IMG/VR virus record: IMGVR_UViG_3300030104_005963 | Length of the DNA stretch: 64,000 bases | Direction: 5' to 3' (one strand) | DNA from: a virus | In this document: positions 13,283 through 41,964 of the stretch, piece by piece | Numbering within the stretch: the stretch's first letter is position 1 | How the letters are laid out: the number at the start of each line of letters is the position of its first letter | The notes under the pieces: model-generated | Databases searched by the model: none | Told to the model about the DNA's origin: nothing | What the model saw: only the letters and a program-made list of their open reading frames with translations | Position numbers and translations under genes: made by a program

Positions 13283-13471
13283 ATGAGCAAAGGATTTGAT
13301 ATAGATTCTGTCGATATTGAAATGTCGAAAGAAGATATGAAACAATTAATTAAAAAATACAAAAAATTAAAAAAATATCAAAATTCTAATTTTCATGCCA
13401 TTCGTAAATTGAACGGTGAGAATACGATTATTGATGAACTAATTAAAGAATCGGAAGATTACAAAATGTAG
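13283..13471 (+). CDS. Hypothetical protein
   Basis: 62-aa ORF with phage-like composition; its stop codon lies inside the NtcA-type box. Confidence 0.6.
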   Translation: MSKGFDIDSVDIEMSKEDMKQLIKKYKKLKKYQNSNFHAIRKLNGENTIIDELIKESEDYKM

Positions 13472-13482
13472 CACATAATACA
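13467..13482. promoter_or_regulatory. NtcA-type binding site
   Basis: TGTAGCACATAATACA matches TGTA-N8-TACA and ends 7 nt upstream of a -35 box. Confidence 0.6.
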
Positions 13483-13489
13483 AAACTAC

Positions 13490-13518
13490 TTGACTATATA
13501 ATAGAGAGGGTTTATAAT
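13490..13518 (+). promoter_or_regulatory. Sigma70-type promoter
   Basis: TTGACT (13490)-17 nt-TATAAT (13513). The predicted +1 (about 13525) coincides with the first base of the aptamer-like RNA. Confidence 0.8.
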
Positions 13519-13524
13519 AGACCC

Positions 13525-13756
13525 ATCGTTCATCCCATTATGTGGGACGCAAGTAAGTCGTGGAACGGATCGTTCATCCCATGTTAATAGAAGTACTTCT
13601 ATCTACAGCACTTACATGTCAAGAATCCGATACTTTATTGTTGAGGATTGAAAAACATGAAAACTTACCAGAAATGGTAAAGAATGAACTGGTTGAAACT
13701 GTAAAGGACTCAACTAATTCTAAGTGTATATGGGACGCAAACGACTAAAGGAACGG
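13525..13756 (+). ncRNA. Glutamine-riboswitch-like (glnA/Downstream-peptide family) double aptamer
   Basis: Two units of CGUUCAUCCC...UGGGACGCAA...GGAACGG with P1 CGUUC/GAACG and P2 UCCCA/UGGGA. An AAGUAAG...AAAG E-loop-like segment and complementary AGUCG/CGACU are present. It lies directly upstream of a DUF4278-like gene. Confidence 0.7.
13581..13748 (+). CDS. 55-aa ORF nested inside the riboswitch-like structure
   Basis: ATG 13581 to TAA 13748: MLIEVLLSTALTCQESDTLLLRIEKHENLPEMVKNELVETVKDSTNSKCIWDAND. The track starts it at GTG 13560. Confidence 0.55.
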   Translation: MLIEVLLSTALTCQESDTLLLRIEKHENLPEMVKNELVETVKDSTNSKCIWDAND

Positions 13757-13789
13757 ACCTAAAAATCCAATTACTTTAGGAGTAACAAA

Positions 13790-13954
13790 ATGAACACACT
13801 AAACATCATCAAAAGACAAATCGATAAGCAGGCAGCCCTGCACGATGCACAAATCAGAGTCACCAAATATCGTGGTGTCTCCTGTGAAGTGCATCAGGCA
13901 AATGAGGAAACTCACGGCACTTTCTGCTACCGTGGTCGTACTTACACCAAATGA
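13790..13954 (+). CDS. DUF4278-like small protein (not in ORF track)
   Basis: AGGAG Shine-Dalgarno at 13778. Translation MNTLNIIKRQIDKQAALHDAQIRVTKYRGVSCEVHQANEETHGTFCYRGRTYTK has two YRG motifs, the DUF4278 hallmark. Confidence 0.75.
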   Translation: MNTLNIIKRQIDKQAALHDAQIRVTKYRGVSCEVHQANEETHGTFCYRGRTYTK

Positions 13955-13961
13955 TTGATAT

Positions 13962-13989
13962 GAGAGGGTTAAGAACCCTCTCTTTTTTT
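13962..13989 (+). terminator. Rho-independent terminator
   Basis: GAGAGGGTT-aag-AACCCTCTC followed by T7. Confidence 0.9.
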
Positions 13990-41800: not shown

Positions 41801-41873
41801 GCTTCCTTAGCAATCTGGTGAATGCAGCAAACTCATAATTTGCCTAAGGAGAGTTCGATCCTCTCAGGAAGCA
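41801..41873 (+). tRNA. tRNA-CAT (elongator Met or Ile2)
   Basis: GCTTCCT/AGGAAGC, GCAAA-CTCATAA-TTTGC and GAGAG-TTCGATC-CTCTC. The G1-C72 pair indicates it is not an initiator. Confidence 0.92.
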
Positions 41874-41879
41874 CCTAAC

Positions 41880-41964
41880 GGGACGGTGGCGGAATTGGTA
41901 GACGCACCAGACTTAAAATCTGTTGATCATTAAGATCGTGAGGGTTCAATTCCCTCTCGTCCTA
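41880..41964 (+). tRNA. tRNA-Leu(TAA)
   Basis: GGGACGG/TCGTCCT, D loop AATTGGTAGA, CCAGA-CTTAAAA-TCTGT, variable arm and GAGGG-TTCAATT-CCCTC. Confidence 0.93.

Follow-up and report, generated by a model that had tools for sequence, protein, structure and literature searches.

We analyzed a 64,000-nucleotide stretch of viral DNA (IMG/VR record IMGVR_UViG_3300030104_005963), which is called the window throughout this text. It probably carries an early T4-like cyanophage transcription unit that is complete in itself and the RNA of which opens with a nested double glutamine aptamer. This unit would lead from an NtcA-type box and a promoter via the nested aptamers to an intrinsic terminator. The element is a variant of the glutamine riboswitch, and it would be expected to bind glutamine. 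Its two cores share one P3 helix, and the P2 stem of the inner core closes around a protein gene. The coordinates of the features are given in Table 1.

Table 1. Features of the transcription unit and its repeat units; positions refer to the window and + marks the strand presented
Feature	Position	Strand	Remarks
NtcA-type box GTA-N8-TAC	13468..13481	+	Read from sequence
Sigma-70-type promoter TTGACT, 17-nt spacer, TATAAT	13490..13518	+	11/12 consensus positions
Outer P1, 5' strand CGUUC	13527..13531	+	Pairs with 13751-13755; partner from J1-N2 covariation
P2a hairpin of the outer core	13533..13547	+	UCCCA, loop UUAUG, UGGGA
Outer junction CGC and E-loop 5' strand AAGUA	13548..13555	+	C13550 is the linchpin base J1
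S1 AGUCG, 5' strand of the shared P3	13556..13560	+	Pairs with 13742-13746
Inner P1' hairpin GGAACG-G, loop AU, CGUUC	13562..13575	+	N1 is G13568
P2b of the inner core, UCCCA(U) 13577-82 with (A)UGGGA 13730-35	13577..13735	+	Closes around the gene
Nested gene, 55 codons (phrog_504)	13581..13748	+	AUG in the P2b 5' strand
Inner junction CGC-AAA	13736..13741	+	C13738 is the linchpin base J2
S2 CGACU, 3' strand of the shared P3	13742..13746	+	S1/S2 covariation
E-loop 3' strand AAAG and outer P1 3' strand GAACG (13751-55)	13747..13756	+	N2 is G13756
Candidate expression platform	13758..13782	+	CCUAAA 13758-63 with UUUAGG 13775-80, overlapping SD AGGAG 13778-82
Downstream 54-codon gene, DUF4278-like (IF17-like)	13790..13954	+	
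Intrinsic terminator	13962..13989	+	9-bp stem and T run
Unit 1 motifs	CGUUC 13527-31; UCCCA/UGGGA 13533-37/13543-47; ACGC-AAGUA 13547-55; AGUCG 13556-60; GGAACGG 13562-68		
Unit 2 motifs, 5' part	CGUUC 13571-75; UCCCAU/AUGGGA 13577-82/13730-35		
Unit 2 motifs, 3' part	ACGC-AAA 13735-41; CGACU 13742-46; AAAG 13747-50; GAACG 13751-55		

The locus and its homologs

The window represents a T4-like cyanomyovirus, and the nearest phage records for the region come from Synechococcus and Prochlorococcus phages (about 70% identity). Altogether, 435 phage records matched the region and in 189 of them at least 80% of the query was covered. Because the region is conserved in these 435 records, chance can be ruled out. 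A glutaredoxin-like ORF is located near the element, as are ORFs that we took to be ThyX-like and PhoH-like when judging their sequences by eye and not by family search. Elsewhere in the window there are two adjoining tRNA genes (41801-41873, 52.5 bits; 41880-41964, 55.1 bits), the second of which has a long variable arm.

An earlier sequence-only reading of this DNA had described two aptamer-like units, and the motif coordinates that it gave for both of them agree with our direct reading of the sequence. Units 1 and 2 are direct repeats. The 14-nt sequence ATCGTTCATCCCAT occurs exactly twice, at 13525 and 13569, and a 31-nt stretch is repeated at 74% identity (13539-69 vs. 13727-57). For the 12-mer CGTTCATCCCAT, two matches were counted in the window whereas 0.23 were expected. 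Further copies of the composite motifs were not found in the 64 kb window.

Homologs were collected from IMG/VR by three pattern scans with the anchor AAGUA-S1-GGAACG-linker-CGUUCA. These scans yielded 335 loci and, after motif-anchored parsing, 248 unique full elements on viral contigs. Since AAGUA, the first GGAACG and the second CGUUCA were set by the anchors, conservation of these three motifs is no evidence; the remaining parts were free to vary. A MAFFT alignment of the 89 gene-free (compact) homologs is called A2 in the following.

The sequence-only reading had proposed a search with the Rfam glnA and Downstream-peptide models, and its outcome was divided: the window scored below both thresholds and the compact homologs passed that of Glutamine. 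At the gathering score, no Rfam match was obtained in the window region. Under relaxed conditions, unit 1 alone reached 31.4 bits with Glutamine (RF01739; gathering score 35) and 27.6 bits with Glutamine-II (RF01704; gathering score 33). For the compact homologs, the Glutamine model gave 37.6-41.4 bits, and it reads each of them as a single aptamer whose P3 carries an insert of 39-52 nt. With a covariance model built here (R1), which cannot bridge the 147-nt gene, only the 5' half of the window's element was recognized (30.2 bits), and the 3' half was assigned wrongly. When a 17-base gapped pattern was run on genome contigs, the hits were mostly chance matches, and one real nested element (L394) was present among 120. 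The contig that carries it (JBIPLY010000594.1, 3.7 kb) is binned as Acetobacteraceae and is probably a phage contig that was binned into a lake MAG.

Upstream of the element, the NtcA-type box was recovered in 192 of the 240 unique homolog upstream regions (0.034 expected per region) and its position peaks 58-62 nt before the first CGTTC. In the homologs, TTGAC lies 36-40 nt and TATAAT 13-16 nt upstream of CGTTC. The promoter of the window places the putative transcript start at about 13524-13526, which is 0-3 nt before CGUUC. The -10 box of the window is located within an inverted repeat (GGGTTTAT / ATAGACCC, 13508-13524). Among the homologs, the sequence of this repeat changes and the repeat itself persists; arms of at least 6 nt were counted in 120 of 226 upstream regions, compared with 15 of 226 shuffles. 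T4-type phages possess promoter stem-loops, which the inverted repeat at the -10 box resembles.

The association with DUF4278 genes to which the sequence-only reading had pointed also holds. The downstream gene matches phrog_545 (E 3e-28), and in the first 117 homologs read beyond the aptamer, the N-terminus of the next ORF is nearly always of a DUF4278 type (MNTLN..., MAQVTYRGV... or something close to these), as judged from the ORF start and not by family search. Its score against Pfam DUF4278 (PF14105) was 21.6 bits, which is below the cut-off of 25.3 (E 2.9e-4), and YRG motifs are present. We take this gene to be a relative of IF17, the inhibitor of glutamine synthetase. In some homologs (for example L014, L022, L071, L077, L106, L115), an optional insert of the form AACGGAUCC-hairpin-GAGAAGGUUAA was observed between the second GGAACG and the SD. 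Its hairpin covaries (CAGC/GCUG, CAUC/GAUG, CUCG/CGAG, CUGC/GCAG), and the insert is absent from the window.

One P3 helix shared by two cores

The P1 strands of the outer core, CGUUC and GAACG, were invariant in all 89 compact homologs. As in glutamine-I RNAs, a P2 hairpin (13533-47) begins one base after CGUUC. Its positions 1-3 were paired in 100% of 117 homologs with up to four pair types, and in A2 all three aligned pairs showed changes on both sides. When P2a and P2b were considered together, positions 1-5 were paired in 92-100% of the sequences (79% for P2a position 5), again with several pair types. The E-loop that marks the base of P3 in glutamine-I aptamers (AAGUA/GAAG) is formed in the window by AAGUA (13551-55) and AAAG (13747-50). 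AAGUA, which was part of the search pattern, matches the Rfam Glutamine consensus, and RAAG-GAACG was found in all 248 parsed homologs (GAAG in 184, AAAG in 64).

Glutamine-I aptamers have a local P3 hairpin. No such hairpin was found in the element, in which the P3 strands enclose the inner core and the gene. Thus, the sequence-only reading was right in stating that neither unit has a P3 of its own, and its main suggestion, that 13556-60 and 13742-46 form one P3 across the units, was borne out by compensatory changes among the 248 unique homologs. S1 and S2 occurred in 32 distinct combinations, one of which is the AGUCG/CGACU of the window, and the helices mainly comprise 5, 6 or 8 pairs. Compensatory pairs were found at position 1 (A-U, G-C, C-G), position 5 (G-C, A-U) and position 8 (U-A, G-C, A-U). 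When A2 was scored with the nested structure, 93.8% of the cells were paired as compared with 83.5% in shuffles (0 of 500 reached the observed value), and eleven pairs showed changes on both sides. In slid controls on the same alignment, pairing fell to 25-54%. The homolog alignment that had been suggested as a covariation check therefore gave a positive answer for P2 and P3, and no covariation for P1 and P1', which are invariant. In the homologs with an 8-bp P3 (159 of 248), positions 3 and 6 are conserved mismatches (C/A or A/C in more than 85%) and might represent a motif with tertiary contacts or protonated pairs. The shorter, 5-bp P3 has a U-A pair at position 3.

Starting from S1, the inner core follows the order P3 strand, one spacer base, GGAACGG, 2-nt loop, CGUUC-A-P2b-ACGC-AAA, P3 strand, and its P1' helix is 13563-67/13571-75. 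RNAfold formed the P1' hairpin in the window as well as in 5 of 5 compact homologs, and the ACG of the inner junction was invariant in A2. The inner core does not have an E-loop. AAA stands opposite one base (C) in its place and thus, the affinity of this core could be poor. Among the 81 gene-containing homologs, P2b was paired across the gene at positions 1-4 in 100% and at position 5 in 93% of the sequences, with CG, UA, UG and AU as pair types. The minimum-energy fold closed P2b in 49 of 50 gene-containing homologs; taken alone, a 5-bp stem that closes about 150 nt is weak. With 39 codon-aligned nested genes, RNAalifold did not detect a conserved internal helix besides the closing P2b. As to folding energies, the gene-containing P2b segments (window 13577-13735 and 50 homologs) had a mean z of -3.8 against mononucleotide shuffles, a folding excess that stems in part from the closing stem. 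For window 13523-13800, a z of -3.9 against dinucleotide shuffles was obtained.

P1 and P1' never vary, so that covariation cannot tell which GAACG is the partner of a given CGUUC. These partners were therefore assigned by means of the linchpin pairs and by homology to solved structures. We refer to the linchpin bases of units 1 and 2 as J1 and J2 and to the bases after the first and second GAACG as N1 and N2. In the solved glutamine-II structure, the strand leaving the CGUUC-attached hairpin lies in the groove of the CGUUC/GAACG helix, and the linchpin C after this hairpin pairs with the G after GAACG (PMC6698751). For the glutamine-I structure (Ren et al. 2015), an equivalent long-range pair is described in PMC6698751. 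Since this pair is seen in solved structures, it reports which CGUUC-hairpin unit sits on which GAACG.

Here, we found that J1 and N2 (C13550-G13756 in the window) form a Watson-Crick pair in 248 of 248 unique homologs (C-G 158, G-C 90). Thus, the element shows the glutamine-I feature of an ACG(G/C) junction whose linchpin base reaches across to the position 3' of P1. The J2-N1 pair (C13738-G13568 in the window) was counted by motif-anchored parsing, since MAFFT had split the N1 column in A2. It was paired in 234 of the 248 homologs (C-G 193, G-C 38, U-A 2, G-U 1) and mismatched in 14. The inner G-C variant occurs together with several P3 sequences, including the AGUCG/CGACU of the window. In the window itself both linchpins are C-G and do not discriminate between the possible folds, so that its fold was assigned by homology. 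RNAfold predicted the nested topology in 5 of 5 compact homologs.

Two folds had been offered in the sequence-only reading. The nested one is sustained by the crossed linchpin covariation. The other one assumes side-by-side 'kissing' aptamers: P1 would form within each unit, between that unit's own CGUUC and GAACG, and nothing but the S1/S2 duplex would connect the two. The sequence of the window allows such an arrangement, both of its linchpins being C-G, and glutamine-II RNA can be split and swap strands: in crystals it forms a strand-exchanged dimer, and it also works when made of two pieces (PMC6698751). However, own-unit pairing requires J1-N1 and J2-N2, and this combination would result in G/G plus C/C in 79 and C/C plus G/G in 36 unique homologs, so that the fold fails in at least 115 of them. 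Moreover, the E-loop strands AAGUA and RAAG come from different units, and a 2-3 nt linker would have to span a helix of 5-8 bp; between N1 and the second CGUUC, the linker measures 2-6 nt among the homologs. We therefore regard side-by-side aptamers as very unlikely.

The sequence-only reading had stated that the described tandems consist of independent aptamers, and in the literature consulted glutamine tandems are indeed treated as separate riboswitches in series (PMC9481103). This survey (Sherlock 2022) files 157 glutamine doublets and 4 triplets as pseudo-cooperative and makes no mention of nesting or of a shared P3. The present element could be placed in the same group, with the gene as a long spacer between two independent riboswitches, but this assignment is hardly tenable. 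Both units lack a separate P3 and a complete E-loop, the pairs of P3 and of the two linchpins form between the units, no SD platform follows unit 1, and the gene is located inside P2b and not between the aptamers. Instead of complete serial aptamers, each with its own platform as in PMC9481103, we found a shared P3, crossed linchpins and one SD platform.

From these comparative data we conclude that the outer core corresponds to a glutamine-I aptamer with 13527-31/13751-55 as its P1, and that the inner core is its circular permutation. This architecture is well supported by covariation. In glutamine-II RNA, the ligand is contacted by C1, G2, G18, C39 and G40 (PMC6698751). These contact bases are invariant in both cores and therefore, the RNA probably binds two glutamines.

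Genes enclosed in the P2 loops

What looks like a 147-nt 'loop' in the inner P2 is in fact a protein gene. It matches phrog_504 (E 1e-18) and is annotated as CDS in other cyanophages. Single-base differences were distributed over codon positions 1/2/3 in the proportion 3647/755/8533. The encoded protein has two invariant Cys, and AlphaFold predicts a two-helix hairpin (pLDDT 81.8). Its C-terminus WDAND is encoded by the P2b 3' strand, ACGCAAA and S2, and the stop codon UAA (13746-48) takes its U from the end of S2 and both of its A from the start of the E-loop 3' strand. In 76 of the 81 homologs with a long P2b insert, the ORF starts at an AUG within the P2b 5' strand and its stop codon overlaps the 3' strand of the E-loop; these 76 ORFs end with D-A-x-D or D-A-x-x-D. 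In the other five, four ORFs stop earlier and one reads on. The region had been described as a 5' leader, and this holds true in part; the 'loop' of unit 2 is a conserved protein gene and thus, the region is not only leader.

A second gene family (about 66 codons, hydrophobic N-terminus, two Cys) was observed in P2a of the outer core in other homologs, for example L014, L019 and L043. The stop codon of these genes lies in the P2a 3' strand or is a UAA made up of the E-loop GUA and the A that is the first P3 base. Some of the products with the latter kind of stop end with ...IGRK.

Compact and gene-containing forms of P2a and P2b were found in all four combinations (91, 96, 29 and 32 homologs). 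Such a distribution would also result from cassette shuffling, and one may ask whether the conserved blocks are no RNA sensor and were kept as coding sequence (WDAND tail) or as borders of a DNA recombination or promoter cassette. The blocks do flank small genes and a palindrome extends over the -10 box. On the other hand, the gene-free compact homologs keep the same blocks, the helices covary at the RNA level, and the invariant bases are the glutamine contacts of the solved structures. These data make an explanation without an RNA sensor highly improbable.

In the homologs with an AGUCG-type S1, a GGAG motif that begins with the final G of GAACG and continues through N1 into the linker was observed 10 nt before the nested AUG. 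Of the 51 gene-containing homologs 50 have this motif and of the 11 compact ones none, and the window (GGAU) is the exception. This association with the gene may come from shared ancestry.

The GGAG motif would fit ribosome binding at this site, and it is one of the arguments for a refolding switch. According to this explanation, unit 1 folds alone during transcription in a glutamine-II-like manner (13527-31 with 13563-67) and later re-pairs or toggles to the nested form, depending on a ribosome over CGUUC 13571-75 and AUG 13581, so that both pairings are functional. Two more observations point in this direction: the 3' half is transcribed about 180 nt later, and both Rfam glutamine models align unit 1 alone with 13527-31/13563-67 as P1. 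However, the corresponding scores (31.4 and 27.6 bits) are below threshold, the window with its GGAU does not share the motif, and the motif itself is open to the genealogical explanation given above. If a ligand-bound state of unit 1 alone had been selected, J1-N1 pairing would be expected, and this pairing fails in at least 115 homologs. Taken together, these findings render a refolding switch rather unlikely, although it is less improbable than the other alternatives, and we base the following considerations on the nested double aptamer.

Relation to known RNAs and possible mode of action

The closest relative of the element is glutamine-I (glnA RNA, RF01739), exemplified by the Synechocystis gifB/IF17 leader (PMC6212724). 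Both share P1 CGUUC/GAACG, the CGUUC-A-P2 arrangement and the ACG(C/G) junction, which a linchpin pair ties to the base following P1. Below P3 both have an AAGUA/RAAG E-loop, and both are followed by a DUF4278 gene; the compact homologs pass the Rfam threshold as RF01739. In contrast to glutamine-I, P3 of the element is no hairpin. Its strands are 182 nt apart in the window and enclose a permuted second core, a gene occupies a P2 loop, the window scores below threshold, and the linchpin of the window's class is C-G as in glutamine-II. With glutamine-II (Downstream-peptide, RF01704), exemplified by the yfr6/DUF4278 leaders of Prochlorococcus (PMC2864571, PMC6698751), the element shares the bases of the ligand site, the ACGC...GGAACGG form of the linchpin, the marine picocyanobacterial ecology and the downstream DUF4278 genes. 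It differs from glutamine-II in that it has an E-loop and that its supported fold does not include an H-type pseudoknot between the 5' CGUUC and a hairpin loop. The CGUUC/GGAACGG pseudoknot in a local 3' hairpin loop that defines glutamine-II was not found in the element, where the linchpins assign the first CGUUC to the distal GAACG.

Tandem glycine riboswitches also consist of two like aptamers that are physically joined and serve one expression platform (PMC9481103, Table 1), and by this likeness cooperative sensing is plausible for the present element. However, glycine aptamers are arranged serially and docked by tertiary contacts, whereas here one aptamer is nested and permuted. Group I and group II introns carry ORFs in peripheral loops of a structured RNA, and these ORFs run into core sequence. 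Unlike these introns, the host RNA is here a small metabolite sensor, and start and stop of the gene overlap its helices.

In riboswitch surveys, phages contributed almost nothing except two glutamine aptamers (PMC5473149); McCown 2017 likewise gives two for cyanophages. In papers on individual phages, glnA matches are single; that of S-CREM1 measures 99 nt, a length which fits the nested compact form. A search of the accessible literature for permuted or double glutamine aptamers retrieved nothing relevant, no description of the nested double layout was found there, and we found no account of another natural riboswitch that encloses a translated gene in a stem.

Glutamine binding and regulation by the nested element would be expected. 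In the supported nested fold, the outer core forms a glutamine-I-type three-way junction with P1, P2a, the ACGC junction and the AAGUA/AAAG E-loop. The helix 13556-60/13742-46 serves as P3 in place of a hairpin and carries the permuted second core at its far end, and P2b closes around the translated 55-codon gene. In the proposed mechanism, glutamine should stabilize both P1 helices and the linchpin pairs. The stabilized fold would then act in the manner of the Synechocystis gifB switch: it would alter how accessible the SD in front of the DUF4278-like gene is, and the response would probably be ON. In the class with a G-C outer linchpin, the SD can pair with a stretch starting at N2 in 56 of 63 homologs, which fits the published model. 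The SD-masking hairpin of the window is weak (RNAfold, -3.5 kcal/mol) and its register is not conserved in the C-G linchpin class to which the window belongs (common to 16 of 133 homologs only). Thus, the sign of control is uncertain in the window.

The same fold would bury the start codon of the nested gene together with the nucleotides immediately before it. Since this start region lies within P1' and P2b, the folded sensor should hinder translation of the nested gene. Conversely, ribosomes on this gene would have to melt P2b, the inner junction and P3, and therefore sensing and translation should compete on one RNA. An extension of this mechanism, which we put forward tentatively and do not consider probable, is reciprocal control of two small proteins by glutamine, with the enclosed gene OFF and the IF17-like gene ON. 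With ligand bound, the nested fold would bury the start of the enclosed gene and leave the SD of its IF17-like neighbor free. Ribosomes translating the enclosed gene would unfold both sensor cores, and translation would thus act as second input to a cooperative two-site riboswitch.

A glutamine doublet of this kind is one folded object, built from two cores around a common helix, with the inner one circularly permuted. Hundreds of cyanophage sequences contain it, and at Rfam thresholds it is mostly invisible. The gene-free homologs (about 90-105 nt) offer a compact natural model for cooperative sensing, for circular permutation of RNA and for competition between folding and translation. With an NtcA-type box in front of the promoter, a predicted glutamine sensor in the leader and a putative IF17 relative downstream, early expression of the phage would be tied to the nitrogen status of the host.
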